Virus record (IMG/VR): IMGVR_UViG_2690316028_000010
DNA from: a virus
Taxonomy: Duplodnaviria > Heunggongvirae > Uroviricota > Caudoviricetes
Strand: one strand, 5' to 3'
Length of the DNA: 10,491 nt
In this document: positions 1 to 10,491 of the stretch, one piece after another
Numbering within the stretch: position 1 is the stretch's first letter
Layout of the letters: each line of letters opens with the position of its first letter
Notes under the pieces: model-generated
The model's input: the letters and a program-made list of their open reading frames with translations, nothing else
The model's database searches: none
Told to the model about the DNA's origin: nothing
Position numbers and translations under genes: made by a program

Positions 1-780
1 TTATGGCCTTGTATTTCCTTTTCTTAACTTCTTTTCGCTCTTTTTTACAAGCTTAATTAACCACTCTGGCTCATCCGACAGTTCGGAGTAATAGCAGTAT
101 TCTGGTATTGCTTTCCAAAATGTTGTTATTGCATCAGCAAATTCAACAAACTGTTCTTCTGTTACATGCAGATCATCATGAGTAGGATTGATATGTCTGC
201 CGCATATACCAGTAGGATGAGGGTAATATTCTGGATGAGTTGATGATAGGAGGCGGTGAGAATTTCCATCACCATGTTTGTACACATTTACGACTAATGC
301 GCACGCTTTGAGCTTATCGCCATAATCAGTTTCATCTATCTTGAGACCGATCCACTCGAGCAGTTTCAACAGTTGATCAAAATTTAAATCCCAAACCATT
401 GGTGTAATGATCTCTTTATCACACCAATGAGACAATTCTCTGATCGTTTTTTCTCGTAACTTTTTATCGAACTGGTGATACATACCCGCAGTTACTGCCA
501 AAAGAACAGTTTCTTGCATTTCAATAAGTGACCAGACGTAGTTTACACCCTCCTCATATGCTTGCTCATAGGCTGCCATTGGGTCGTCAAAATCAGGATT
601 GAAATGCTCAGCGGTATACTCCAGAAACTGTTTCTCTCGCTCCTCCGCCTCTTGGGTCAGATCCCCAAACTGAGACAAAAGTCTCCGTCTTGCTTCCGAA
701 ACATAAAATTCGTGAGGTTCAAGAAAATAGGGCCGATCTACTTTAGCAAGCCAAAATGTCACGAAGTTATCTGATGACAT
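1..780 (-). CDS. hypothetical protein, 259 aa, AT-rich accessory gene; function unknown
   Basis: Complete ORF: ATG at 780-778 (plus 'cat'), stop TAA at 3-1. SD-like 'aagga' about 7 nt upstream on minus strand. Protein has mixed composition, not low-complexity. Local GC is clearly lower than the central block (by-eye count of the first 120 nt ~37%). No family recognised. Confidence 0.6.
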   Translation of the reverse strand: MSSDNFVTFWLAKVDRPYFLEPHEFYVSEARRRLLSQFGDLTQEAEEREKQFLEYTAEHFNPDFDDPMAAYEQAYEEGVNYVWSLIEMQETVLLAVTAGMYHQFDKKLREKTIRELSHWCDKEIITPMVWDLNFDQLLKLLEWIGLKIDETDYGDKLKACALVVNVYKHGDGNSHRLLSSTHPEYYPHPTGICGRHINPTHDDLHVTEEQFVEFADAITTFWKAIPEYCYYSELSDEPEWLIKLVKKSEKKLRKGNTRP

Positions 781-924
781 AACTTATCCTTGATAATTAT
801 TGTATGGATAGATTATCCAGAAATTTGCGAACTGAGTCGGTCATTTTTTTTTGTGTGCGCGTGATGTAATAAAGGTTCAGGAATATACTGTCAGTTTACT
901 GAAAAACTGGCAACAGAGGCGGTT
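781..924. promoter_or_regulatory. divergent intergenic region between the 259-aa gene (minus) and the 75-aa gene (plus); presumed to hold both promoters
   Basis: 144-bp AT-rich gap with a T9 run (843-851) between two outward-facing start codons. No confident -35/-10 pair could be assigned by eye. Confidence 0.3.
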
Positions 925-1152
925 ATGAGCGAGAGTTACGAGTTCTCAGCAGGTTGTTTTTTGAAGCTATCAATATCTTCAGGGTATTTCACTATCAAAA
1001 TTCAGGGAGATCTCCCCGCTCGTGCAGCTAGTGCCATCTTGGCAGATGATGTCGAGCAGGTTTTATCTCAACTAGACAAATGTTTTCAGCTGAGTAATAG
1101 GCAACGAGAAGGGATCGTTAAGTATCTTATGTCGAAGGGGATGCAGCCTTGA
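925..1152 (+). CDS. hypothetical small protein, 75 aa
   Basis: ATG at 925 preceded by SD 'agagg' (915-919). Stop TGA at 1150-1152 overlaps the next gene's ATG (TGATG), indicating translational coupling. Confidence 0.5.
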   Translation: MSESYEFSAGCFLKLSISSGYFTIKIQGDLPARAASAILADDVEQVLSQLDKCFQLSNRQREGIVKYLMSKGMQP

Positions 1153-1610
1153 TGACTTGGATCACCCAAACAGATAACTGGACAGGGATCGCGGCGTGGG
1201 CGGGTTTTGCTTTGTCCGTATTTCAATTACTAAAATCCAGAACATCGCTAAGGCTTTATCTCGGATGTGATCAGCACGAGGACAGGATATACGTTTCGAA
1301 CATAAGCGCACACGATGTAACGTTGAGTGCAGCCGGTGTGGTAACAGCCAGTGGACGCCTTAGAATGTTATCCGACGAATATTCGGACGAGAACATGATC
1401 ACACCGATGCTGCCAAAAAGATTGAAAGCACGAGACGAAATGGTCTTGAACGTGCCATTCATAAATAAGGCTCATCACAACAAAGTGCATCATCGTGGCG
1501 GGGTTTATATCAAAACATCTGACGGCAAGATGTTCAGTGATGTTTGTTGGATCAAACGCCAATGGTGGTGGTTACTGTCTGTAATACTACGAGACACAAA
1601 GCGATACTAA
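1152..1610 (+). CDS. hypothetical membrane-anchored protein, 152 aa from ATG 1152 (ORF track starts at TTG 1149)
   Basis: Start ATG 1152 overlaps upstream stop. One N-terminal hydrophobic stretch 'WTGIAAWAGFALSVFQLL' (~1182-1235) consistent with a single TM helix or signal anchor; remainder hydrophilic with a His-rich patch (HHNKVHH). Stop TAA 1608-1610. Confidence 0.5.
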   Translation: MTWITQTDNWTGIAAWAGFALSVFQLLKSRTSLRLYLGCDQHEDRIYVSNISAHDVTLSAAGVVTASGRLRMLSDEYSDENMITPMLPKRLKARDEMVLNVPFINKAHHNKVHHRGGVYIKTSDGKMFSDVCWIKRQWWWLLSVILRDTKRY

Positions 1611-1639
1611 GTTGATTGATAGTCCGAGGTGATGTTCTG

Positions 1640-1657
1640 CCCAGCGTAGTTGCTGGG
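1640..1657 (+). terminator. weak hairpin downstream of the 75/152-aa pair (6-bp stem cccagc/gctggg, 6-nt loop)
   Basis: Inverted repeat 1640-1645 / 1652-1657. No following U-tract, so at best a weak terminator or RNA structure. Confidence 0.2.
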
Positions 1658-1690
1658 TGATACACCTTCAATGATTCTTGTTAGTGTGTA

Positions 1691-1699
1691 GGGGGGGGG
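1691..1699 (+). repeat. homopolymeric G9 tract immediately upstream of the 72-aa ORF start
   Basis: Sequence 'gggggggggc' then ATG at 1701. Upstream in-frame stop TAG at 1689-1691 places the tract in the 5' UTR / ribosome-binding region, not inside coding sequence. Confidence 0.9.
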
Positions 1700-1700
1700 C

Positions 1701-1919
1701 ATGTTGGATTTTAAAGCTGAGTTTGTTGGCGGCAGCCATAGCGGCGAGGTTATATCACCGATGTCCGAGGTAGAACTTAATAAACTAGGGTATAGAGTCC
1801 ATTTACGTGGTGCCCCCTCTGGCGATGAAATGCCTGTACACGTTGTTGTACCTATTGAATGGTCAGCGGATGAAGCACACAGAGCCATAATGCAGCGCTG
1901 GGGTAAACGCAGACGGTAG
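1701..1919 (+). CDS. hypothetical small protein, 72 aa, basic C-terminus (WGKRRR)
   Basis: ATG 1701, stop TAG 1917-1919; G-rich SD-like sequence directly upstream. Composition more protein-like than the overlapping minus-strand ORF 1607-1930 (S/P/T-rich). No family recognised. Confidence 0.45.
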   Translation: MLDFKAEFVGGSHSGEVISPMSEVELNKLGYRVHLRGAPSGDEMPVHVVVPIEWSADEAHRAIMQRWGKRRR

Positions 1920-2301
1920 ATGTCGCGCATTTCTCTTAAACTGGCTGCTGTGTTTGGTGCTAATTATCCATGCAAAGTGGCCTAAGCTACGTGGAAGAAT
2001 GATCAGTTTCGCATTATTTGGTTCAAGGAGGGCTCCCCCACAGCCTCACTCTCTGAATGCAAAACAGCCCCACAATCCCACTGTTAAAAGTCCCAGCTTG
2101 AAAATTGCACGCTTATGGTTGCCCCTCCCTCAACTCTATAGCTCGCCCGCGCCCCCGTGTGCATGTGCGTGCCCGCGCGTCAGGGGTCGCTGAGAAACCC
2201 TAAGATTTTGCTCATCCGAGACAAGCATTACCTGCACCTGTAAAACGCGAAATTACCTCTCAAACACCACACATAAACCCACTTTGCATTGAGATCTGAC
2301 A
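1920..2301. other. ~380-bp GC-rich, apparently non-coding spacer with C-rich runs and an alternating purine-pyrimidine tract
   Basis: Only ORF here (1954-2193) is Pro/Ala/Arg-rich and low-complexity. Contains 'gcccgcgc' twice (2146-2153, 2171-2178) flanking 'gtgtgcatgtgcgtg' (2157-2171). Sits upstream of the capsid-like operon. Confidence 0.4.
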
Positions 2302-2649
2302 ATGACCTTACTGACACCTGAAAACGTGGCAGCGGCTAGGGCTGCCCGTAGCGCGAGGATTGAACACTGGAAAGCCAACGCCAGCCAGCTTAAGCAGGAC
2401 TTTGCTGACGAAGCGCACTGGCGGCGGCTCGCCTCACGCTTCGGCGTGCGTATGCCCTCGGCGTATGTTCCCGGCTCCGAGCTGCGATTGCTGCGCCGGG
2501 CGGCCAAACGCGCGGGCATCTCTGGTGCTGATATGCGCGATGCTTTTGGTGGGGGCGTTGCGCACCTGCACGAGCTTAATCCCCATTGGCCTGCCTTCGC
2601 GCTTATCGGCCTGATTCTTGAGATCGCGGCTGAAAAAGCTGCTGCCTGA
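2302..2649 (+). CDS. hypothetical protein, 115 aa, Ala/Arg-rich with hydrophobic C-terminus; first gene of the capsid-like operon
   Basis: ATG 2302, stop TGA 2647-2649. Codon third positions G/C-biased, consistent with real coding in this GC-rich block. Function not recognised; a small scaffold or packaging-associated protein are possibilities only. Confidence 0.5.
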   Translation: MTLLTPENVAAARAARSARIEHWKANASQLKQDFADEAHWRRLASRFGVRMPSAYVPGSELRLLRRAAKRAGISGADMRDAFGGGVAHLHELNPHWPAFALIGLILEIAAEKAAA

Positions 2650-2717
2650 TTCATCCCATTCTCTTTTCCCCTTTTCCATAAATCGCGCTGGCTAACGCTG
2701 GCGCGGGAGCTATTTCT

Positions 2718-3713
2718 ATGACTGACAATGTTTATACCCCTGACCAATTCCGCCCGCACTGGGGCGGTGTAGATGCTGACAACGACATTCACATTGAAGC
2801 GTATGACCGGGACGTTCAGACCCGCCTTGAGGCAAAGAGCGTGTTTCTCGCCGAGGGGCTGAGCACATACAAGCCGCTGAAAAACAGTAATCAGTATCGT
2901 GTAGACCGCCTGAGCGGAGATCTGGAGGTGAAGGGCAGAACCGCAGGGCAATCGCTGGAGCCTACCGCCGTTAAGTCGGACAAGCTGATTATCTCTGTGG
3001 ATACGCTGAGCTATATCCGCATCCCGATTGACTATCAAGACGACTGGACAGCGCCCACCTTTCGCGCAGAGCTGAGCCGCAACATGGGGACAGCCCATGC
3101 AAAGTTCTACGACGAAGCGCACACTATCCAGCTAATCAAAGCGACTGACTTTGTACCGCCGCCTACGTTGCAACCAACGTTTAACCCGCTGACGGATAAT
3201 GTTGTCTCGCTCGACCTGACAACGGGGAGCGAAGAGGATGCGGCTAACGAACTGGTTCACGCTATTAAAGCTGCTGTTAATCGATTCCTAACTGAAAAAG
3301 ATATTCCGGTGGCGGAGCTGTGCCTTCTCATCGACCCAGCTTGGTTCAGCATCCTGATGGAACATAAGAAGTTGATGAACGTCCGTTACAGCCGGGATAG
3401 TGGCAATGATTACGCATGGCGTCGCGTTGGCTATGTCGCTGGGGTGCGAGTTATTGAGCTGAACAGTTACCCGCAGGAAGCCATTACCGCGCATGAACTG
3501 GGCGCTGATTATGATGTGACCGCAGGGGAAGCGCTGACACGGGCGACGCTGTTCCGGCCTGCGTCTGTACTTGTGACAGTCGAAGCGCAGAGCGTTATCA
3601 ATCGCCAGTGGGATGATGAACGCGAAATGACAATGGTGATGGACTCATATCGCCTGTTCAATGTTGGGCTGCGCCGCCCTGACTGCGTTATAAATTTCCG
3701 ACAAGCTGCATAA
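2718..3713 (+). CDS. putative phage major capsid protein (HK97-fold / T7 gp10-like), 331 aa
   Basis: ATG 2718 with SD 'gggag' ~8 nt upstream; stop TAA 3711-3713. Several segments resemble T7-type capsid proteins from memory (e.g. 'IPVAELCLLIDPAWFSILM', C-terminal 'GLRRPDCVINFR'). Followed 17 nt later by an HNH gene, a common capsid-module neighbour. Similarity is by recall, not alignment. Confidence 0.5.
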   Translation: MTDNVYTPDQFRPHWGGVDADNDIHIEAYDRDVQTRLEAKSVFLAEGLSTYKPLKNSNQYRVDRLSGDLEVKGRTAGQSLEPTAVKSDKLIISVDTLSYIRIPIDYQDDWTAPTFRAELSRNMGTAHAKFYDEAHTIQLIKATDFVPPPTLQPTFNPLTDNVVSLDLTTGSEEDAANELVHAIKAAVNRFLTEKDIPVAELCLLIDPAWFSILMEHKKLMNVRYSRDSGNDYAWRRVGYVAGVRVIELNSYPQEAITAHELGADYDVTAGEALTRATLFRPASVLVTVEAQSVINRQWDDEREMTMVMDSYRLFNVGLRRPDCVINFRQAA

Positions 3714-3729
3714 CAAAAGGGGCCGAGCC

Positions 3730-4161
3730 ATGAATATTGATGCTTATGCCCCGGAGCTGTTGCGCTCTTTGTTTCGGTACGATGCGAAGACTGGCCGCCT
3801 GTTCCATGCAGTAGACCGGATCGGAGCCAACAAGCGGATTTACGCTAAAGCCGGGGAACTGGCCGACACGGTAACGGACAGCGCCGGATATAGGCGCGTA
3901 TCTGTCCGCATCAATGGCAAATCTCATGCGCTATACGCCCACCGTGTCGCCTTCATCATTGCTAATGACGGTATCCCTGCCGGGATGCAAATCGACCATA
4001 TCAACGCGGTACGCGATGACAACCGCCTTATCAATCTCCGCACGGTTACGCCACAAGAGAACCAGCACAATTACCGCAAAGCCAAGGGTTATAGCCACCA
4101 TGCCTGCTCTGGCAGATGGGAGGCTTACATTCGCGTTGGTGATCCACCGCGCGATAAATAA
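3730..4161 (+). CDS. HNH endonuclease (HNH_3-type, phage-associated), 143 aa
   Basis: ATG 3730 with SD 'aaagggg'; stop TAA 4159-4161. Clear HNH signature 'IDHINAVRDDNRLINLRTVTPQENQHN' and the N-terminal 'GYRRVSVRINGKSHALYAHRVAFI' pattern typical of this family. Confidence 0.85.
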   Translation: MNIDAYAPELLRSLFRYDAKTGRLFHAVDRIGANKRIYAKAGELADTVTDSAGYRRVSVRINGKSHALYAHRVAFIIANDGIPAGMQIDHINAVRDDNRLINLRTVTPQENQHNYRKAKGYSHHACSGRWEAYIRVGDPPRDK

Positions 4162-4200
4162 GCCGCAATCCGTGAGATAAATGGACACGGTGCGGCTTTT
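4161..4200. terminator. bidirectional intrinsic terminator candidate between convergent HNH and tape-measure genes
   Basis: Imperfect hairpin: 'agccgca' (4161-4167) pairs with 'tgcggct' (4191-4197), inner stem 'ccgtg'/'cacgg', followed by TTTT (4197-4200) on plus strand and an A/T-rich run on the other side. Lies in the 66-bp gap between the two converging stop codons. Confidence 0.5.
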
Positions 4201-4227
4201 CAGATACTGCAAAGGAATTACAGATTA

Positions 4228-6711
4228 TCAGTCGTAAGCAACCCGGCGCTTACGGGCAAGGATAGCTTCCAGTGCTCTTTCAATCTCAGGAATGGACAGC
4301 TTAAGCGCATTGGCCACATCCGGTGCTGGTGACTTGTTCTTGCCATCAATATAGATATTGTTAATGACGTTAATCCCGCCGCCTGCGCCTGCTGGTGAAT
4401 GAGAGTCCCGGCCTCTGGGTAAGGTAAGGTCGCCGCGCATATAGCGCTCTAATACGGGGGGTACTTTCGGCACATCCGGCACCATCATATCAGCCAGCCG
4501 CGAGGAGGCTTTCAGCGCCAGTGATGCAGACTGACCAATGCCAATCGCCGCCCCTTCTGCGATATTAGACCCGAAGCCCATAAATACACGGCTTGGCGAG
4601 TGAATCCCCAGCTTTTCCTTGAACCAGCCGCCGACACTGTCACCCATCTCAGTGACGGTATTCTTGAGAGACTCCCACTTGTTTTTGATACCGTTCACCA
4701 GTCCATCAATCAAGTGACCACCAAACTCAGTAAACTGGCCGGGAAGGTCGATGTTAAACCACTTCATGACCCCCGCAAACGCCTTGTAGAACAGCCCCAG
4801 CGGCGACCAGTTCAGGATTAGCTTACTGACACCAAGAACCCCGCCGTTAAAGGCTGTTTTCACTTCCTCCCACCGCTGCGAGAACCATCGGCTTATCGCG
4901 CCCCAGTTGCGGTAAATCAGGTACGCGCCCCCGGCGATGATGGTTATCGCAATGCCTATGGGGTTCATTAACAGCGCCCTGCCAAACCAGAGGAAAGCCT
5001 TTGCCACCACCATTACGCCTCTGAACAGTCCACCCGCCAGCGCTTTACCCAGCATTCCGGCTCCCTTCGCCACGGTACTGAATCCGGTAGCCAGCCAGCG
5101 CAGCTTTCCGCCGTCGCTCAGGGCGGTTTTGAGCAACAGCCAGTTAGTGCGCAGCAGTACGGCGTTTTTCCACAACCCGGCGAACGGTGATACCAGCAGA
5201 TTCAGGCCGAGTTTCAGCCCGACAGTGGCGATTTTCAGCCCCAGCAGTACGCCCACGGTTTTTGCCACACCCTGAACAATGCCGGGATGTTGCGCTATCC
5301 ATTGCCCGGTGGAATGAATCAGCGGAATCAGTTGCTGCGTCATTGACACGAACGAGGGAGACAGTTGACTGCCAAGGGTAATGGACAGTTCGCGGGTGCT
5401 GACCATCAGTGCTTTGGTCGCCTCCAGCGGCGATTTCAGTCGCTCCGTGTAGGAGGAGGCCAGCAGGTCTTTATCCGCCGCCTTAAGTGCGCCAGCCCTG
5501 ATTTCGCGGTATTTGTCCATGTTGGCGAGCATCGGACGGACAAACGCCATGACCTGCATATCGGCGAACATCTCACCCAGACCGAAATTCTTTGCCAGTT
5601 CCTGTAACGCAAGGTCGCGGGAGTTATCGTCCTTGATTTTCATTGCTTTCTTGAAGCCTGCCAGTGCTTCCGGGCTTTTGGCCTCCAGATACCTGCCCAT
5701 GACGCTTATCATGCCCTCAATGGGCGAGACGCCAGCAGATTTATAAGCCATGAGTGACCCCTGAAGGTCAATCCCGATATCGGCAAACTGTTTCTGCGTG
5801 TCGCGGGCAAAAATCTTGGTGAGGAAGTTACGGAAGTTGTTACCAGCCTCGTCAGATGACCCGGCACCAATTCGGGCAATCTGTAAACTCGCTCCGATTT
5901 CCGCCATCGCTTCTTTACCTTCGGCAATACCGCGCATCATCGGGGCAAGAGATGGCATCCATTTCACCTGGTCAGGTATTTCAAAAGACCCTTGGTCGCC
6001 TGCAAAGGCCATGATGTTCTGTACTTTGGCAAACTCTTTAGCGCTGCCATCCATCGAGTTTTTCCAGACGGCGGCAACCTTCGCCCATTCCGTCCCTGTG
6101 GTGCGTGTGGCAGTAGCGGCGCGGGCTATATTGGGCATGAAGCTGCCAATTTCGGACACACTGTCGATATTGTCACTGATAAGCGAGCCTACGGCGTCCT
6201 GTAAGTCGCTCTGGTACTGGTTGTACTTGAGCGACCATCCCCGGATTTGCTGCCCCAGACTGGCGCGGGTTTTATCGTCATATTTCGCCGTGATCGACAT
6301 ATCAATCATCTTGTCGTCGAACGTAGCCGACTGCTGAATCGCCGGGGAAACGAGGCTGTAAGCGGCTTTGGCCTGCGCCCACGTCTCAATTCCCTGTCCA
6401 TAAAGCGCCATCCGGTTAGCTCTCAGGGCATCGGTTGTGGCAGACGCTGCCGACAGGCGGGACTGCTGGCGGTTTAGTTGCTCCAGCGTTCTGCCTACCC
6501 GTTGCAGGTCATTGTTCAGGCGTGAGGCCACGCCTGAACCTACCTGACCGTAACGCTGCATGGCGCGTGACAGGCTGCTTTGTTGCTCGGTCAGGCGGCG
6601 TGACGTGTCGCCGAGAGAATCAAGCGCCCGCCGTGTGCCGCTGACGGCGGAACGGAAGCTGCTCCCGACAATACCGCCAATCATCACACCAACAGAAAAA
6701 TTATTGCTCAT
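4228..6711 (-). CDS. phage tail tape-measure protein, 827 aa
   Basis: ATG 6711-6709 with SD 'ggagtg'; stop at 4228. Helical N-terminal region, long central Gly/Ala/Leu-rich hydrophobic segment, and C-terminal 'GIHSPSRVF'-type motif that I recall from tape-measure proteins. Size is typical. Confidence 0.75.
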   Translation of the reverse strand: MSNNFSVGVMIGGIVGSSFRSAVSGTRRALDSLGDTSRRLTEQQSSLSRAMQRYGQVGSGVASRLNNDLQRVGRTLEQLNRQQSRLSAASATTDALRANRMALYGQGIETWAQAKAAYSLVSPAIQQSATFDDKMIDMSITAKYDDKTRASLGQQIRGWSLKYNQYQSDLQDAVGSLISDNIDSVSEIGSFMPNIARAATATRTTGTEWAKVAAVWKNSMDGSAKEFAKVQNIMAFAGDQGSFEIPDQVKWMPSLAPMMRGIAEGKEAMAEIGASLQIARIGAGSSDEAGNNFRNFLTKIFARDTQKQFADIGIDLQGSLMAYKSAGVSPIEGMISVMGRYLEAKSPEALAGFKKAMKIKDDNSRDLALQELAKNFGLGEMFADMQVMAFVRPMLANMDKYREIRAGALKAADKDLLASSYTERLKSPLEATKALMVSTRELSITLGSQLSPSFVSMTQQLIPLIHSTGQWIAQHPGIVQGVAKTVGVLLGLKIATVGLKLGLNLLVSPFAGLWKNAVLLRTNWLLLKTALSDGGKLRWLATGFSTVAKGAGMLGKALAGGLFRGVMVVAKAFLWFGRALLMNPIGIAITIIAGGAYLIYRNWGAISRWFSQRWEEVKTAFNGGVLGVSKLILNWSPLGLFYKAFAGVMKWFNIDLPGQFTEFGGHLIDGLVNGIKNKWESLKNTVTEMGDSVGGWFKEKLGIHSPSRVFMGFGSNIAEGAAIGIGQSASLALKASSRLADMMVPDVPKVPPVLERYMRGDLTLPRGRDSHSPAGAGGGINVINNIYIDGKNKSPAPDVANALKLSIPEIERALEAILARKRRVAYD

Positions 6712-6742
6712 GGTTCACTCCGGTTGAGTGGTTCGGTGGGCG

Positions 6743-7336
6743 TCATTCAGTCAGGGACAGGCCGCTGATTCCGGTAATCCCGGCAATTTCTTCGCTGACG
6801 GCTGCCAGTTCACTTTCAAGCCCGGTGCGTTCGCTGACCAGTGCCGCCACGGTCTTACGGCGCTCTGCCAGTGAGGGAAGTTTGTCATTACCCCACGTCA
6901 CGCTCTTATCCTTCTTAAGCGCTTCGGTCAGTCGGGTGGCGACCACATCCGGGAAGAAAAAGCAGAGCTTGCGCATTACCGCCATCCCGGTATCAGCCGG
7001 GGGGACGTTTCCTCCCAGCCCCACCAGACGGAACAGACCGGAAATATCGCCGTTCTCATTTTCCAGATTGCCCCAGCGTTCGGCGTTCCCTTCACCGCCG
7101 GAACCGTTGCAAAGAGCACGCTTGAATGACTGATATTCTTCCTGCCCGAATCGCTCAATATATTCAGGAATAAAGGAACAGTAATCATTAAGTGATAACG
7201 GCATATCCTGTAATGCGGTTATTTCGCCATTAATATCACCAATGCGACGAGAGAGCTTTTCTTTCTGCTCATTCAGGGAGGTAAGGTTATTTTTAACGGC
7301 GTTCAGTGCTTCAATGAGGGAAATAACAGGTTTCAT
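6743..7336 (-). CDS. hypothetical protein, 197 aa, coiled-coil-like N- and C-termini; possible scaffold-like or tail-assembly accessory protein
   Basis: ATG 7336-7334 lies 1 nt after the upstream gene's TAA (taaAATG) with SD 'ggag' inside the upstream gene's 3' end; stop TGA 6745-6743. Heptad-like ends; no slippery heptamer seen at the 3' end. Confidence 0.5.
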   Translation of the reverse strand: MKPVISLIEALNAVKNNLTSLNEQKEKLSRRIGDINGEITALQDMPLSLNDYCSFIPEYIERFGQEEYQSFKRALCNGSGGEGNAERWGNLENENGDISGLFRLVGLGGNVPPADTGMAVMRKLCFFFPDVVATRLTEALKKDKSVTWGNDKLPSLAERRKTVAALVSERTGLESELAAVSEEIAGITGISGLSLTE

Positions 7337-7337
7337 T

Positions 7338-7952
7338 TTAATAACTCCAGATAAAAGGTGTAGTGAGGGTGAGCGCTTCGGAATAGGAGACGTTGCAGGC
7401 TTCGCTTACATCCTTTATTAAAAGGTGCTGCGCTGCCCTCTGGCTGTCGGCTATGCCGTCGAGCTCTGAGAAATAAACGTGTGATTCATTGTGACCAAAA
7501 CAAACCGGGTAAGCGCTTTCCATAAACTCCACCTGCTCAAGCCCCTTTACGGCTGGCGGCTGTGCGCCGAGAAAACCAATATGGCGAAGATACCAGGCAC
7601 CAGTTCCGGCCGGGTTACGCGCTTCTCCCGGCCTGTAGAAAGCGGCAGACACTTTTTTATATAGACCTGACTGAACCATATCCAGCAACCTGTTATCAGG
7701 CTTAACCAGCGCGAAAAGTCTGCCGTTTTTACTTATCAGTCCGGTGGTTTCACCATAGGCGGGACTGTTACTGGCCGGATGCCCCAGGCACAGCGGCGCA
7801 CCATAACCCGCGCGATGATAGCCGTTATAGGCTGCTGCCATGTTGTCGATATCCTCGTCGGAAAAGCTGATTTCCTGCCCCGCCATCGCGGTATGTGTTC
7901 CCGCCCGGAATATCTCAATAGTTTTCCAGTTACCAATATTGATATCTGTCAT
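7338..7952 (-). CDS. putative GPO-family prohead protease / capsid scaffolding protein, N-terminal protease-like domain, 204 aa
   Basis: ATG 7952-7950; stop TAA 7340-7338. Recalled resemblance to P2 gpO N-terminus: 'FRAGTHTAMAGQEISFSDEDIDNMAAAY' vs gpO 'FRIGVEGDTCDGRVISAQDIQEMAETF', and 'LCLGH' vs gpO 'INLEH'. Shorter than P2 gpO (~284 aa). Confidence 0.55.
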   Translation of the reverse strand: MTDINIGNWKTIEIFRAGTHTAMAGQEISFSDEDIDNMAAAYNGYHRAGYGAPLCLGHPASNSPAYGETTGLISKNGRLFALVKPDNRLLDMVQSGLYKKVSAAFYRPGEARNPAGTGAWYLRHIGFLGAQPPAVKGLEQVEFMESAYPVCFGHNESHVYFSELDGIADSQRAAQHLLIKDVSEACNVSYSEALTLTTPFIWSY

Positions 7953-7953
7953 T

Positions 7954-8481
7954 TTATATTTGTCCCTGTTTCATATCGCGGCACTCTTTGTTTTTCTTAC
8001 GCTCGGCGGCAATAATCTGATAAATCCACTGAATAGAATTGCCATATTTCCTGGCTAATTCCCGATGAGTCATCCCTTGTTTGTAATCGGAAAATATCCT
8101 GGCATTTCTGTCGAAAGAGTTTCTGGCTGCGCCATTAGGTATATAGAAATTGTTACCTTTAAAGACCCTTCTAAGGTGTTCTGTAATTTCCGGGGAAATG
8201 ATTTCGGCCTGAGCCGAAAAGCAATGTATTGTAAGCAAAGCCTGCGCTATCACACCTGTAAGCTCATGCAGAAAAGATGTTGCTTTAGGGGCGTCTTCAC
8301 ATTCTATTGGCATGTAATTCTGGCAACCACCAAGATTATCAGATATATGCAAAACAATTTTATTTGCTGCACTACTTGCCTGAAGTTGTGAATAGCCCGC
8401 ATCAGTCAGAAAATCTTCAATCGCATCCCCCATTTCCCCCAGAGTGTCAGATGTTGCGTACAATCCCTCTCTTGTAATCAT
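7954..8481 (-). CDS. Mor/C-family transcriptional activator (Mu middle/late activator family), ~175 aa from ATG 8481
   Basis: C-terminal region matches the Mor pattern: 'NFYIPNGAARNSF' (cf. Mor 'QVYIPRG'), 'RIFSDYKQGMTHRELARKYGNSIQWIYQIIAAERKK' (HTH). ATG 8481-8479 has SD 'gagg' ~7 nt upstream; the ORF-track start at 8487 is a GTG too close to the SD. Stop TAA 7956-7954, 1 nt before the next gene's start. Confidence 0.75.
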   Translation of the reverse strand: MITREGLYATSDTLGEMGDAIEDFLTDAGYSQLQASSAANKIVLHISDNLGGCQNYMPIECEDAPKATSFLHELTGVIAQALLTIHCFSAQAEIISPEITEHLRRVFKGNNFYIPNGAARNSFDRNARIFSDYKQGMTHRELARKYGNSIQWIYQIIAAERKKNKECRDMKQGQI

Positions 8482-8509
8482 AATCACACCTCGGTAATGA
8501 TAAAGATGT

Positions 8510-8614
8510 GCGCTAAAAAGGCTTTATAAAGCTTTATGAGGCGTCTTTCTGGTGACAAATCAGCACATACACCATTAACGCTTTAAAATGGCTTACAGGC
8601 TTTTTTAGCGCGGG
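8510..8614. promoter_or_regulatory. regulatory region upstream of the Mor-like gene: 12-bp palindrome, tandem 'gctttat' and flanking 10-bp inverted repeats
   Basis: 'ataaagctttat' perfect palindrome at 8526-8537; 'gctttat' at 8521-8527 and 8531-8537. 'gcgctaaaaa' (8510-8519) is the inverse of 'tttttagcgc' (8602-8611). Promoter hexamers not confidently assigned. Confidence 0.35.
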
Positions 8615-8681
8615 TTACTAATGTGGATTAAGAATATGGTTTTGGGGCGGGGATGTTTTTTAATGTACTTTAGATATGAAG

Positions 8682-8703
8682 AAGCCCCTCAGAGGAGGGG
8701 CTT
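8682..8703. terminator. GC-rich hairpin (9-bp stem, 4-nt loop) immediately downstream of the 96-aa gene; candidate intrinsic terminator
   Basis: 'aagcccctc' (8682-8690) pairs perfectly with 'gaggggctt' (8695-8703), loop 'agag'. Sits 17 nt past the TAA at 8722-8720; the flanking run on the minus-strand transcript is only moderately U-rich. Confidence 0.45.
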
Positions 8704-8719
8704 GCGGGATTACGCCAGA

Positions 8720-9010
8720 TTATTGAGGTCGTCTGTCTTTCCTCAATCCATCAAGTAGCGCCATGGCATCAGTAACCAGTATGCCAGCAGCATCCGTAAC
8801 CATCGAAACATCAGAGGATGCACATGATTTATCCATACCTAATGTTGACGCAAAATCAAGTAGCTTACGAACTGCGTCAAGTCGATAGGTGGCAGAGTCG
8901 TAAATTAACTCCTGATTAGCATCAGTCTTTAAAAACATAATATCATCAGAGGCACCTTGCGAAAATGACGGCATCGCACGGAAAGTATTTTGAGTTTCAG
9001 CCTGTTTCAT
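8720..9010 (-). CDS. hypothetical protein, 96 aa
   Basis: ATG 9010-9008 overlaps the upstream gene's TGA (ATGA, coupling); SD 'ggagg' ~8 nt upstream; stop TAA 8722-8720. Confidence 0.5.
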   Translation of the reverse strand: MKQAETQNTFRAMPSFSQGASDDIMFLKTDANQELIYDSATYRLDAVRKLLDFASTLGMDKSCASSDVSMVTDAAGILVTDAMALLDGLRKDRRPQ

Positions 9011-9744
9011 TGTGCAGTCCTCCGGCTAATAGCGAATTTATTATAAACTTCATAACTGGCAGCATTCAGTCCGGGGTTGTATTTATCAGCCAGAGCACAG
9101 GCAATCATATGTTCAATAAATTTTGTTATTGCGTTAAGTTCAGTTTCGTTTGAATAACGCAATGCCACTTTGAGTAACTCGCGGCAATATTGTTTTTTAT
9201 TCCCTTCGATTTGGCCTGATTTTTTTATTCCTGCCTTTTTATCTGATTCATCCTCAACAGGCAAAGATGGGATATCCTCTTTATTGGTTAGCGTTCTTTC
9301 GCAAATAATATCTTCACCAGATTGAATTACGCGCTGCAACTCTCTGGCGCTCATACGAAGAATATCATCAAGCGTGTGGTCGTTATATGCCCCACCACTG
9401 GCAAGGAGATCCAGTGTCACTTCATCCAGCCGGGCAAGCAGGTTTAACTTCGTTTTGCCGATACTTGTTTTGGCAATTGCGGCTCGGGGGGTATTGGTTA
9501 CGCCAAATATCAGAGCAACCCGCATAGCATTATGGGCTTCACGTTTATTAATTCCCCCCACTGAAAGCGCCTTTGCAAATTCCTCATTTGTTTTTGTTGC
9601 TTCCTTAAGTGCCAGCATCTCTTTACCACGATGCACTAAAGTTTCAGTCGGGGTTGGCAAAAGGAGTACAGCATCTAAAATTTTTTCCCGAAGTACATCA
9701 ACTTGGCTTGCGATGCATGAACGGTTAGACTTGTTGATACCCAT
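9007..9744 (-). CDS. hypothetical protein, ~245 aa from ATG 9744 (ORF track begins at TTG 9765); candidate early/regulatory protein
   Basis: ATG 9744-9742 preceded by SD 'gagga' ~9 nt upstream; stop TGA 9009-9007. Acidic/Lys-rich linker mid-protein; no P-loop or other catalytic motif recognised. Divergent from the RHH gene. Confidence 0.5.
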   Translation of the reverse strand: MGINKSNRSCIASQVDVLREKILDAVLLLPTPTETLVHRGKEMLALKEATKTNEEFAKALSVGGINKREAHNAMRVALIFGVTNTPRAAIAKTSIGKTKLNLLARLDEVTLDLLASGGAYNDHTLDDILRMSARELQRVIQSGEDIICERTLTNKEDIPSLPVEDESDKKAGIKKSGQIEGNKKQYCRELLKVALRYSNETELNAITKFIEHMIACALADKYNPGLNAASYEVYNKFAISRRTAQ

Positions 9745-9774
9745 GATTGTTATCCTCAATAACAATGGTGGTCA

Positions 9775-9809
9775 GGCAGGATGTGATACTGAACCTATCA
9801 TGTCCTGCC
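9775..9809. promoter_or_regulatory. imperfect dyad symmetry (13-bp arms, 11/13 matching, 9-bp spacer) upstream of the 245-aa gene
   Basis: 'ggcaggatgtgat' (9775-9787) vs 'atcatgtcctgcc' (9797-9809). Could be an operator or a 5'-UTR hairpin of the minus-strand transcript. Confidence 0.3.
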
Positions 9810-9840
9810 GCTTGCGGTTTTACATCTACTTAATGTAATG

Positions 9841-9877
9841 TACGTACCATTGATTTCAATCTAAACAATGGTACGTA
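9841..9877. promoter_or_regulatory. perfect 12-bp inverted repeat with 13-bp spacer (candidate operator) overlapping the RHH gene start codon
   Basis: 'tacgtaccattg' (9841-9852) and its exact reverse complement 'caatggtacgta' (9866-9877). The right arm covers the ATG at 9868-9870. Located in the divergent promoter region. Confidence 0.55.
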
Positions 9878-10071
9878 TCATGTCAAGAGTAAAAGATAAC
9901 ACGCCTAAAAATTCCGCAGGGCGTTCCCCGACCTTCCAAATACGTATTACACCTGAACTTAGGGAACAGCTTGATAAAGAAGCTCTTAAAGATGGTGTAA
10001 GTTTGGCCAATTGGCTCAAAGGCATTGCACGAGATGAACTACGCAGGAGAGGTATTTCTCCAAAAGGGTAG
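9868..10071 (+). CDS. ribbon-helix-helix (Arc/MetJ-like) DNA-binding protein, 67 aa; putative repressor
   Basis: 'FQIRITPELREQLDKEALKDGVSLANWLKGIARDEL' fits the RHH beta-strand plus two helices (cf. Arc 'FNLRWPREVLDLVRKVAEENGRSVNSEIYQRVMESF'). ATG 9868 (alternative ATG 9880), both with weak SD; stop TAG 10069-10071. Confidence 0.6.
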   Translation: MVRIMSRVKDNTPKNSAGRSPTFQIRITPELREQLDKEALKDGVSLANWLKGIARDELRRRGISPKG

Positions 10072-10086
10072 GGCTAATCAGGTACA

Positions 10087-10476
10087 AAAAGCGAAAACGT
10101 TTTCGCTTTTATGGCTAAGAGAGCGGATGCACTCATTAAAGCGGACAGCGCTGTCCGCCTCCAATCAGCAAAAAAACAAGATGGTTCCTCCAAAACGCTC
10201 AACGTTGAGCGTTACGTTATTCCGACAAAAGCGCAGGCGCTTGCGCTTTTGAAAGGGATCAACACGGCTTTCAAACCGGACAACGTTGACCGCTTTAAGG
10301 AATCACTGTCGGCTGAGCAAAAACGGCAAGCGCTTGCCGTTTTAGATTCGCGGGGCGGTAAACGTTTACCGTTCTGTGTCAATTATGTTCAAAAGCGAAA
10401 GCGCTTTCGCATTTTCTCACCTAAAGCGGCAAACCTCCTCTGTCTTAGCTGGAAAAACGACATCGCTGTCGTTTTT
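10087..10476. repeat. array of eight hairpin-capable palindromes of one family (A-tract, CG-rich core, T-tract)
   Basis: P1 10087-10110 aaaagcgaaaac|gttttcgctttt (perfect, 24 bp); P2 10141-10158 gcggacagc|gctgtccgc (perfect); P3 10194-10213 aacgctcaac|gttgagcgtt (perfect); P4 10227-10250 (1 mismatch); P5 10320-10343 aaaacggcaagc|gcttgccgtttt (perfect); P6 10356-10371 cggtaaac|gtttaccg (perfect); P7 10391-10414 (1 mismatch); P8 10453-10476 aaaaacgaca-tcgc-tgtcgttttt. Symmetry kept while sequence differs between copies. Confidence 0.85.
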
Positions 10477-10491
10477 AATCCGAGGTTCTAA
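10111..10491 (+). CDS. ORF of 126 aa overlapping the palindrome array; coding status doubtful
   Basis: ATG 10111 directly after palindrome P1, stop TAA 10489-10491 at window end. Repeated peptide motifs (KAQALALL, KRQALAVL, KRKRFRIF) are direct consequences of the DNA palindromes, so the frame may be open by chance. Confidence 0.3.
   Translation: MAKRADALIKADSAVRLQSAKKQDGSSKTLNVERYVIPTKAQALALLKGINTAFKPDNVDRFKESLSAEQKRQALAVLDSRGGKRLPFCVNYVQKRKRFRIFSPKAANLLCLSWKNDIAVVFNPRF

Follow-up and report, generated by a model that had tools for sequence, protein, structure and literature searches.

We analysed a 10,491-nt stretch of DNA from IMG/VR virus record IMGVR_UViG_2690316028_000010 (the window; coordinates count from its first letter), with a focus on positions 2302-4227, where a capsid-like gene and an HNH endonuclease gene run towards a tape-measure gene. 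We found that the window is the nested wreck of two mobile elements in an Escherichia coli chromosome beside tRNA-Gly: an island, to which the capsid gene belongs, and a Mu-like element inserted into the HNH gene of that island. We consider it probable that the island copy is a defective member of a satellite family of T7-like phages, one that seems not to have been described before; this copy was hit by a mini-Mu element and afterwards suffered a deletion. Taken on its own, the window is the product of this insertion and this deletion, and both the odd setting of the capsid gene and its apparent operon result from them; the interest lies in the families thereby exposed, more than in the window copy.

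Nested insertion and deletion in the window

Base composition is uneven along the window, with a GC content of about 39-47% on the left, 52-59% across 2000-7000 and about 42% beyond 8000, which suggested a mosaic; bases 1-1919 form a low-GC left flank with four open reading frames (ORFs). By searching the complete E. coli genomes with megablast, we found no single genome that holds the whole window, and separate sets of genomes cover 1-2231, about 2229-4137 and 4140 onward. Local alignment to an island of E. coli LR536431 (L006) located the first two parts: window positions 1-2231 correspond to L006 15001-17231, at the end proximal to tRNA-Gly, and positions 2229-4141 to L006 23121-25033, both at 100% identity. 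The two matching segments lie 5.9 kb apart in LR536431, and the genes for a serine recombinase, an SF2 helicase, a small-terminase-like protein of 68 amino acids (aa), a helix-turn-helix (HTH) protein and a scaffold-like protein of 228 aa have gone from the window together with the intervening DNA. At 4139/4140 the window departs from LR536431 in the middle of the HNH gene and goes on with TGATCCACCGCGCGATAAA, a sequence that also opens the tape-measure segment inside ynbC of AW1.7 and, on a Citrobacter IncF plasmid, within the leading region.

The order of the two events could be read from a metagenome contig (L097), where the HNH gene is interrupted in the same way but the island is otherwise intact, without the 5.9-kb deletion; the insertion thus preceded the deletion. 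Since the window copy is identical in sequence to its intact relative, both lesions are recent. What is left of the island is its cargo, a non-coding box described below, the 115-aa gene and the intact capsid gene, followed by the truncated HNH gene. The window copy is very probably dead as a mobile element, with its capsid gene still intact. The chimeric 143-aa HNH protein created by the insertion is present on 19 public contigs, L097 among them, and the predicted right insertion junction (TCTAATCA followed by CGTTGG and TGGTG...) had no match in JGI metagenome contigs.

We could also trace the chromosomal setting. NCBI contig LLYK01000102.1 (GCA_001484375.1) contains the window at 100% identity and extends only 19 bp past its right end, and the 6.3 kb to the left of the window on this source contig hold tRNA-Gly, actS, xdhABC and ygeV, arranged as in LR536431, where tRNA-Gly is located between actS and the island. 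All these are chromosomal genes and no phage gene lies among them. Neither the window nor these 6.3 kb contain a portal or large terminase gene, in agreement with the initial annotation, which had noticed the lack of both, and the flank that it wished to see inspected for a head module offers none of an ordinary prophage. No RNA family was found in the window with Rfam at gathering thresholds.

Three plus-strand ORFs (115, 331 and 143 aa) are opposed by a string of minus-strand genes (Table 1). The initial annotation took the three for a short operon that ends head-to-head with the tape-measure gene at a shared terminator. They are indeed co-directional and convergent with the tape-measure gene, but the arrangement is tail-to-tail, and the supposed operon is a fragment, cut by the 5.9-kb deletion and by the insertion at 4139/4140. 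In the HNH ORF, codons 1-137 are its own whereas the final 6 codons and the TAA stop are supplied by the inserted element; the uninterrupted copy in LR536431 encodes 175 aa, so that the window copy lacks the final 38 residues. The hairpin in between (minus strand, -26.7 kcal/mol, z -4.6; plus strand, -20.5 kcal/mol, z -2.5) is not shared in any evolved sense either, as it lies wholly within the outermost 60 bp of the inserted DNA and recurs next to the terminus wherever else the element was seen inserted. It was found by folding, having been missed by a consensus terminator scan because its loop is too long, and it probably terminates the tape-measure operon. With the element's terminus, the break in the HNH gene and the hairpin all placed by inserted DNA, the convergent "operon" with its shared terminator is an insertion junction rather than a case of modular shuffling. 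Although the 827-aa ORF is a tape-measure protein as annotated, it belongs to a separately mobile element, which occurs by itself within ynbC and ybhJ and on plasmids. It is hardly tenable, then, that the capsid, HNH and tape-measure genes form one reduced, module-shuffled element with a common terminator: they are adjacent and convergent and a hairpin stands between them, but the two halves are distributed independently, the sequence breaks exactly at 4139/4140, termini and target duplications of its own mark the tape-measure half at other sites, and the junction truncates the HNH gene. The related proposal of a reduced element that borrows from a helper does fit the island that owns the capsid gene, once the tape-measure gene is excluded from it.

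A capsid gene carried by a compact island

The 331-aa protein is an HK97-fold major capsid protein of the phiKMV/Bonnellvirus (Autographiviridae) type. It matched PHROG 267 ("major head protein") at E 2.8e-67 and, by phmmer against the PDB, gp17 in 23sf (E 4.8e-78, residues 1-324), the HRP29 capsid (8eld, 7.7e-75) and that of PhiM1 (8vb0, 1.7e-60); along its whole length, matches to capsid proteins of solved virions ranged from E 4.8e-78 to 2.5e-54. No Pfam, NCBIfam or PADLOC model matched it (best Pfam E 0.07), so the identification is based on PHROGs, PDB sequences and the fold. An AlphaFold model from 28 homologues reached a predicted template modelling score (pTM) of 0.67, with low confidence in the N-arm and E-loop regions, and the top Foldseek matches in the PDB were the HRP29, PhiM1, P-SCSP1u, Kp7 and T7 capsids, followed by encapsulins, all at probability 1.0. 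As the HK97 fold was found, the capsid-like call of the initial annotation stands. By tblastn, the protein matched 759 phage records, at least 80% of it being covered in 750 of them, and among them Escherichia phage forsur (Autographiviridae, Bonnellvirus) came closest, with a capsid protein 58% identical.

This gene differs from those of phages in its distribution. Island copies are 92-97% identical in protein sequence across five genera and, among nine islands, the median ratio of non-synonymous to synonymous substitution rates (dN/dS) was 0.10 with dS up to 0.6, which means that the gene is under strong purifying selection. Island-type capsid proteins (>86% identity) form clusters separate from the phage ones, the largest with 978 member sequences. 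In IMG/VR, genes of this type lie on contigs of 13-28 kb, and relatives of at most 58% identity are all on genomes of 40-45 kb where the contig looks complete; neither IMG/VR nor the species-representative genomes yielded a 40-kb element with an island-type capsid.

Intact copies of the island were found in E. coli (strains E2348/69 and A16 as well as LR536431) beside tRNA-Leu (leuX) or tRNA-Gly and also in Trabulsiella, Enterobacter, Kosakonia and Kluyvera, with an identical core gene order in 12 loci from 5 genera. Variable cargo comes first, with the serine recombinase, the SF2 helicase and proteins of 145, 68 and 58 aa behind it; the middle part consists of a 187-aa HTH protein, proteins of 79 and 228 aa, a variable slot (a 115-aa protein or a 137-aa HTH protein) and the capsid protein; the last part holds the HNH gene, genes for 141-aa and 99-aa proteins and endonuclease VII, variable genes and a tyrosine integrase. 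In all five copies that have tRNA-Leu within the stretch fetched, 25-34-bp direct repeats of the tRNA-Leu 3' end enclose 14.6-15.2 kb. The island gene order is also kept in a second lineage, with a capsid protein of only 60% identity. Among the 5,426 complete E. coli genomes, about 178 match bases 1-4230 and, among the matches listed, mostly over the capsid gene.

Annotations together with Pfam and PHROG scans revealed no portal, large terminase, protease, connector or tail gene in the 12 intact islands. The island thus has the general anatomy of a satellite: a discrete integrative element with flanking repeats, far below phage size, with an incomplete set of virion genes. The lack of portal, large terminase, protease and tail genes excludes an ordinary prophage as well as a capsid-forming phage-inducible chromosomal island (cf-PICI), the comparison suggested by the initial annotation, since portal, protease and connector genes are missing from the window and from the 12 islands alike. 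A complete or ordinary prophage is likewise rejected by the lack of large terminase (TerL) or portal genes beside the capsid gene and of the island-type capsid on 40-kb viral contigs. Nor is the island a classical PICI (int-alpA-pri/rep, no structural genes), as no AlpA or primase match was obtained and a capsid gene is present, and its gene content rejects a P4-like element.

In other islands the slot of the 115-aa gene, directly upstream of the capsid gene, is held by the 137-aa HTH protein; an identical 115-aa protein occurs on 909 Enterobacteriaceae contigs and matches PHROG 21723 (unknown function) at E 1.3e-52, and its model (predicted local distance difference test 80) gave no fold match better than E 2. 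The cargo proteins (259, 75, 153 and 72 aa) had no Pfam, NCBIfam or PADLOC match, and the 259-aa one matches PHROG 19541 (unknown function). A restriction-modification system occupies the same slot in copy L004, and the window cargo may therefore consist of uncharacterised defence genes. Past the insertion point, in the intact relative (L006 25168-26286), lie the 141-aa and 99-aa proteins, which are 85-97% identical across genera and are followed by endonuclease VII. Neither matched a family, the 99-aa one giving a weak tblastn likeness to small terminase (TerS; E 0.07), and both could be additional factors in island morphogenesis or packaging.

A phage terminus box and a probable satellite of T7-like phages

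Beyond the capsid gene, the sole nucleotide similarity between island and phages is a non-coding box of about 70 nt (Table 1), which intact islands carry in a single copy. With blastn, we found it in 13 of the 14 related islands, including the lineage with the 60%-identical capsid protein; the search did not find it in IMG/VR island copy L100. The flanks of the box do not align between islands. The box includes a 22-mer identical to one IMG/VR Bonnellvirus-like phage, and 20 phage records match it, each at a single site; their hosts are Escherichia, Enterobacter, Kosakonia, Cronobacter and Pantoea, the first three being island-carrying genera. In forsur and in one IMG/VR phage piece, scanned whole or in part, it is present once, directly after the endolysin gene. 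The deposited genome end of phage J8-65 (TCGACCC...) lies inside the box, at CCTCCC^TCGAC: the genome begins TCGACCCGAAGG, and ...GCTTGAAAATTG...CCTCCC stands before this sequence at the right end. The box hence spans the boundary where the terminal repeat begins, and the island retains both sides of it (CCTCCC, then TCAAC ... CCCCCGTG). Such a match would make the box a mimic of the end-forming (packaging/cleavage) site of the helper.

Two more island proteins resemble packaging and head assembly factors of the same phages. The 68-aa protein is similar to T7-type small terminases (PF11123, E 3.3e-4, below gathering score; PHROG 891, E 3.8e-3) and to forsur TerS (tblastn E 5e-3; hhalign E 8e-5), with which it shares the motif MAAAELS..FLK.N. 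The 228-aa protein matched PHROG 1018 ("head scaffolding protein") at E 5e-5, and over its final 105 residues it aligns with the C-terminal 100 of the forsur scaffold (410 aa), the part that binds the capsid, both C-termini being reached (hhalign E 6e-5). These likenesses are weak but agree across methods, and they suggest a putative small terminase and a putative scaffold.

Taking these observations together, we propose that on infection by a lytic phage of the Bonnellvirus type the island would excise and replicate, the SF2 helicase presumably serving its replication. Smaller heads would be built from the island capsid protein and the short scaffold on the portal of the helper. The helper large terminase, steered by the small-terminase-like protein of the island and by the terminus mimic, would then package the ~15-kb island and not the ~42-kb phage, while the helper would supply portal, tail and lysis functions. 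As would fit such a satellite, the island is about one third the size of the ~42-kb phage and the 228-aa scaffold-like protein about half the normal scaffold length. The same one-third ratio is known from SaPI1 and P4, which make T=4 heads out of T=7 helpers. In the copy studied here, a 7.8-kb Mu-like element without transposase jumped into the HNH gene, creating the apparent convergent operon with its "shared" terminator, and the later 5.9-kb deletion took the recombinase, helicase, small-terminase-like and scaffold-like genes. Helper dependence, redirection of capsid size and packaging at the box are in this scheme predictions from gene content and from the phage match.

Several points weigh against this proposal. 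Excision, induction, small capsids and transfer are predictions from sequence. Co-assembly with the helper portal is an assumption, because the best phage capsid match is just 58% identical. The small-terminase and scaffold matches are weak, with E values of 1e-3 to 1e-5, hhalign probabilities of 61-66% and scores below Pfam gathering. The 259-bp terminal repeats of J8-65 were taken from its GenBank annotation. No flanking repeat was detected around the island copy at tRNA-Gly, which has an IS1 beside its integrase. No helper-sensing regulator was identified in the island, and since no 11-mer recurs usefully in forsur as a phage-promoter motif, none could be sought in the island.

The island could instead serve mainly as an anti-phage defence that is not transferred, its capsid protein, short scaffold, TerS fragment and terminus copy acting, with the HNH and endonuclease VII, as decoys or poisons that abort Bonnellvirus assembly and packaging. 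All its phage-derived parts are indeed truncated or divergent versions of helper parts, two nucleases share the gene string, the tRNA-proximal cargo is variable with a restriction-modification system in one copy, and interference by copies of phage structural proteins has a precedent in tail assembly interference, as described in excerpts of PMC11364771. We nevertheless find this unlikely: integrase, flanking repeats, helicase, a size of about one third of the phage and a spread over five genera are together the anatomy of a transferable element, and among the window proteins tested with PADLOC models the HNH protein alone matched. Known satellites interfere with their helpers too, so that defence and satellite functions are not exclusive. 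More improbable still is a decayed remnant of an ordinary, possibly temperate, T7-like prophage that lost its terminase, portal and tail genes. Decay is visible in the window copy, as one deletion and one insertion, and the relatives carry an integrase and phage-like genes, but 12 loci of 5 genera share the compact gene set, as does the lineage with 60% capsid identity, the capsid gene is under strong purifying selection, and we found no 40-kb element with an island-type capsid in the collections named above.

A further question is the role of the HNH gene, which the initial annotation had placed among the genes that normally accompany a terminase. That it encodes an HNH endonuclease was confirmed, the 143-aa protein containing an HNH_3 domain (PF13392, E 7.6e-14). 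In cos-packaged SaPIs (Staphylococcus aureus pathogenicity islands), a phage HNH is needed, according to excerpts of PMC5052747, and in 12 of 12 close relatives the island HNH sits within the morphogenesis gene string, so it might be a packaging co-factor of the terminase, comparable to HK97 gp74 or to the HNH of cos-type SaPI helpers, rather than a selfish enzyme. We regard this as quite improbable, and the terminase-associated kind as doubtful. The domain is of the HNH_3 type and matches homing-endonuclease models (PADLOC E 1.2e-8). Its nearest phage relatives are free-standing HNH genes with up to five matching places per genome (4-5 for the top matches), mostly in ~44-kb Pectobacterium, Klebsiella and Xanthomonas phages. 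HNH alleles are merely 63-65% identical among islands, compared with mostly ~90% or more for the flanking genes on either side, and in the divergent island lineage no HNH follows the capsid gene, its HNH_3 gene being located elsewhere. To our knowledge, T7-type phages also package without an HNH. Judged by these comparisons, the HNH is best read as a selfish homing-type endonuclease riding in the island.

We know of no satellite of Autographiviridae, and in the open-access literature we found no description of one, of this island or of a Mu-type satellite; an earlier description elsewhere is possible. Like the cf-PICIs of Enterobacteriaceae, which are integrative islands of similar size, the island has its own HK97-fold capsid protein and a small-terminase-like protein and would take the rest from a helper. 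cf-PICIs, in contrast, encode a complete siphovirus-type head module (portal, protease, connectors, often HNH, TerL) and steal only tails, whereas the present island is of the Autographiviridae type and has an SF2 helicase and a serine recombinase in place of alpA with pri-rep. SaPIbov5-type cos SaPIs with Ccm also encode a homologue of the helper capsid protein and carry a copy of the helper cleavage site; in excerpts of PMC5052747 and PMC8569155, this satellite-encoded homologue alters head size and packaging proceeds via the cleavage-site copy. Those islands differ in being Gram-positive, with temperate siphovirus helpers, a cos site and a helper-encoded HNH, while here a lytic podovirus, its genome bounded by direct terminal repeats, is the presumed helper and the island HNH looks homing-type. 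PLE of Vibrio cholerae and the PICMIs of Vibrionaceae are, similarly, chromosomal satellites of virulent phages, and PLE reshapes the helper capsid via a satellite-encoded scaffold, TcaP (excerpts of PMC10945586 and PMC10803314); they have no major capsid protein of their own, their helpers are not Autographiviridae, and we found no sequence relationship. The island also resembles the Bonnellvirus phages themselves (J8-65, forsur and relatives), with capsid proteins 56-58% identical, a similar scaffold C-terminus and small-terminase motif and a near-identical terminal-repeat boundary, although these have genomes of 41-42.5 kb with RNA polymerase, portal, tail and large terminase genes, all missing from the island. 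We rate the find as a variant within a known kind, the phage satellites that encode a capsid protein of their own.

Autographiviridae are T7-like lytic phages and common tools of phage therapy and biotechnology. E. coli K-12 was the isolation host of forsur and its close relatives, and the island is present in about 3% of complete E. coli genomes as well as in Enterobacter, Kosakonia, Kluyvera and Trabulsiella. If such phages are hijacked or blocked by it, this would matter for phage host range, for therapy failure and for the horizontal transfer of defence genes and other island cargo. The island would also offer a new and genetically simple system for work on capsid size determination, because the satellite supplies capsid protein and scaffold alike, and the conserved terminus box makes the proposal directly testable with existing phages (J8-65, the "sur" phages) and strains (E2348/69).

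The inserted Mu-like element and other features

Table 1. Features of the window by position, with strand and supporting detail
Position	Strand	Feature	Detail
1-1919		Cargo end of the island	259-aa ORF at 1-780 (-); plus-strand ORFs at 925-1152, 1149-1610 and 1701-1919
2096-2165	+	Conserved non-coding box, GCTTGAAAATTGCACGCTTATGGTTGCCCCTCCCTCAAC...CCCCCGTG	Copies the direct-terminal-repeat boundary of Bonnellvirus phages
2229-2231		Deletion junction	3-bp microhomology TAC; ~5.9 kb of the intact island gone
2302-2649	+	115-aa all-helical protein	Variable slot directly upstream of the capsid gene
2718-3713	+	Major capsid protein, full-length and intact	HK97 fold, Autographiviridae type; from PHROG, PDB sequences and fold
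3730-4161	+	HNH_3 homing-type endonuclease gene, truncated and chimeric	3730-4139 HNH-derived; 4140-4161 from the inserted element
4140-10491		Left 6.35 kb of a ~7.8-kb transposase-less Mu-like element, inside the HNH gene	Left terminus TGATCCACCGCGCGATAAA at 4140-4158
4160-4198	-	Hairpin inside the terminal sequence of the element	Within the terminal 60 bp; probable terminator
4228-6711	-	Tape-measure protein, 827 aa	PhageMin_Tail E 5e-20; PHROG 28 E 2e-122
6743-7336	-	197-aa protein, scaffold position	Conserved element gene
7338-7952	-	204-aa protein, like the N-terminal domain of Mu-type head proteases	PHROG 976
7954-8487	-	Mor activator	Mor E 1.7e-25
8720-9010	-	96-aa ORF	
9007-9765	-	252-aa DUF3102-like ORF	Name from annotation
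9868-10071	+	YlcI/YnfO-like 67-aa ORF	YlcI_YnfO_N E 4.6e-6
10111-10491	+	Partial ORF	126+ aa here; 79 aa in AW1.7

Complete copies of the inserted element measure 6.9-7.8 kb and end in 5'-TGAT...ATCA-3'. One IMG/VR contig (L034, 7,799 bp) consists of exactly this element, from one terminus to the other, and another complete copy lies at L001 15001-22809. The element occurs alone in ynbC, in ybhJ and on plasmids, in E. coli, Citrobacter and Enterobacter hosts, and four of these other sites show 6-bp target duplications: AGTGAA (ynbC), GTAATT (ybhJ), and ATTGCA and CCAGAG (two plasmids). TG...CA termini combined with short duplications at varied sites are a trait of Mu-like elements, and such ends have been described for the BcepMu group (PMC2628397). 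Reading the sequences, we noticed the motif TTATCTCACGG near both ends in inverted orientation, and beyond TGAT/ATCA no inverted repeat of the left terminus was found. About 50 bp of the same terminus are also present in a 37.5-kb Mu-like viral contig, adjoining Gp27, Mor, GemA, DUF3164, a MuB-like ATPase and an rve transposase.

Like Mu-like and BcepMu-like phages and mini-Mu, the element combines TG...CA termini and short duplications with Mor, a Gp27-like protein, protease-scaffold genes and a tape-measure gene; it differs in having no transposase, MuB, capsid, portal or tail-tube gene and in its size of just 7.8 kb. No ORF for a DDE transposase (MuA/rve) or a MuB-type ATPase was found in complete copies, so the element is non-autonomous. 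The 204-aa protein matched PHROG 976 ("head maturation protease") at E 1.2e-46 over profile positions 31-173 of 415, and as its phage homologues are at most 47% identical, the element is an old lineage and not a fresh deletion. Tape-measure copies are 92-99% identical in amino acid sequence (dS 0.2-0.45, median dN/dS 0.05), and the genes for the 204-aa and 197-aa proteins gave medians of 0.12 and 0.17, respectively; with values of 0.05-0.17, the structural genes are under strong purifying selection. From its gene set, the element looks like a non-autonomous mini-Mu that would depend on a helper transposase, and it is possibly a satellite of transposable phages.

This poses a parallel question, namely whether transposable phages have satellites. 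The widest reading of the window would be one satellite inside another, with undescribed satellites of lytic Bonnellvirus phages (own capsid, short scaffold, mini small terminase, terminus copy) on one side and an undescribed, helper-dependent and transposase-less mini-Mu on the other; we put this forward tentatively, with somewhat less than even confidence.

Between element copies, Mor is 32-100% and the 252-aa protein 55-87% identical, with the structural genes conserved. Variable Mor and 252-aa proteins beside a steady tape measure are the pattern expected if regulators carry helper or immunity specificity. The element also has a stretch of more than 1 kb without a convincing ORF (L001 21213-22300; L034 5912-7315), of which the window reaches the start, at about 10072-10491; Rfam gave no family in this window part.

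At a nucleotide identity of at least 80%, the element was detected in about 33 of the 5,426 complete E. coli genomes. Some 23 of them have a variant without the tape-measure gene, which in the example examined, ZH063, lies beside tRNA-Ser. The ZH063 variant (L020 8001-12400; about 20 similar genomes) keeps the left terminus; it is located beside this tRNA-Ser between clpA and infA and has an IS5 behind it. Strain KCJ3K291 carries a longer tape-measure gene, of 1,026 aa. Finally, the Enterobacter hormaechei plasmid pFJMB80002_2 (L019), which may be a phage-plasmid, bears a copy of the element along with dnaE, an intein-containing RecA and a NUMOD4-HNH endonuclease.

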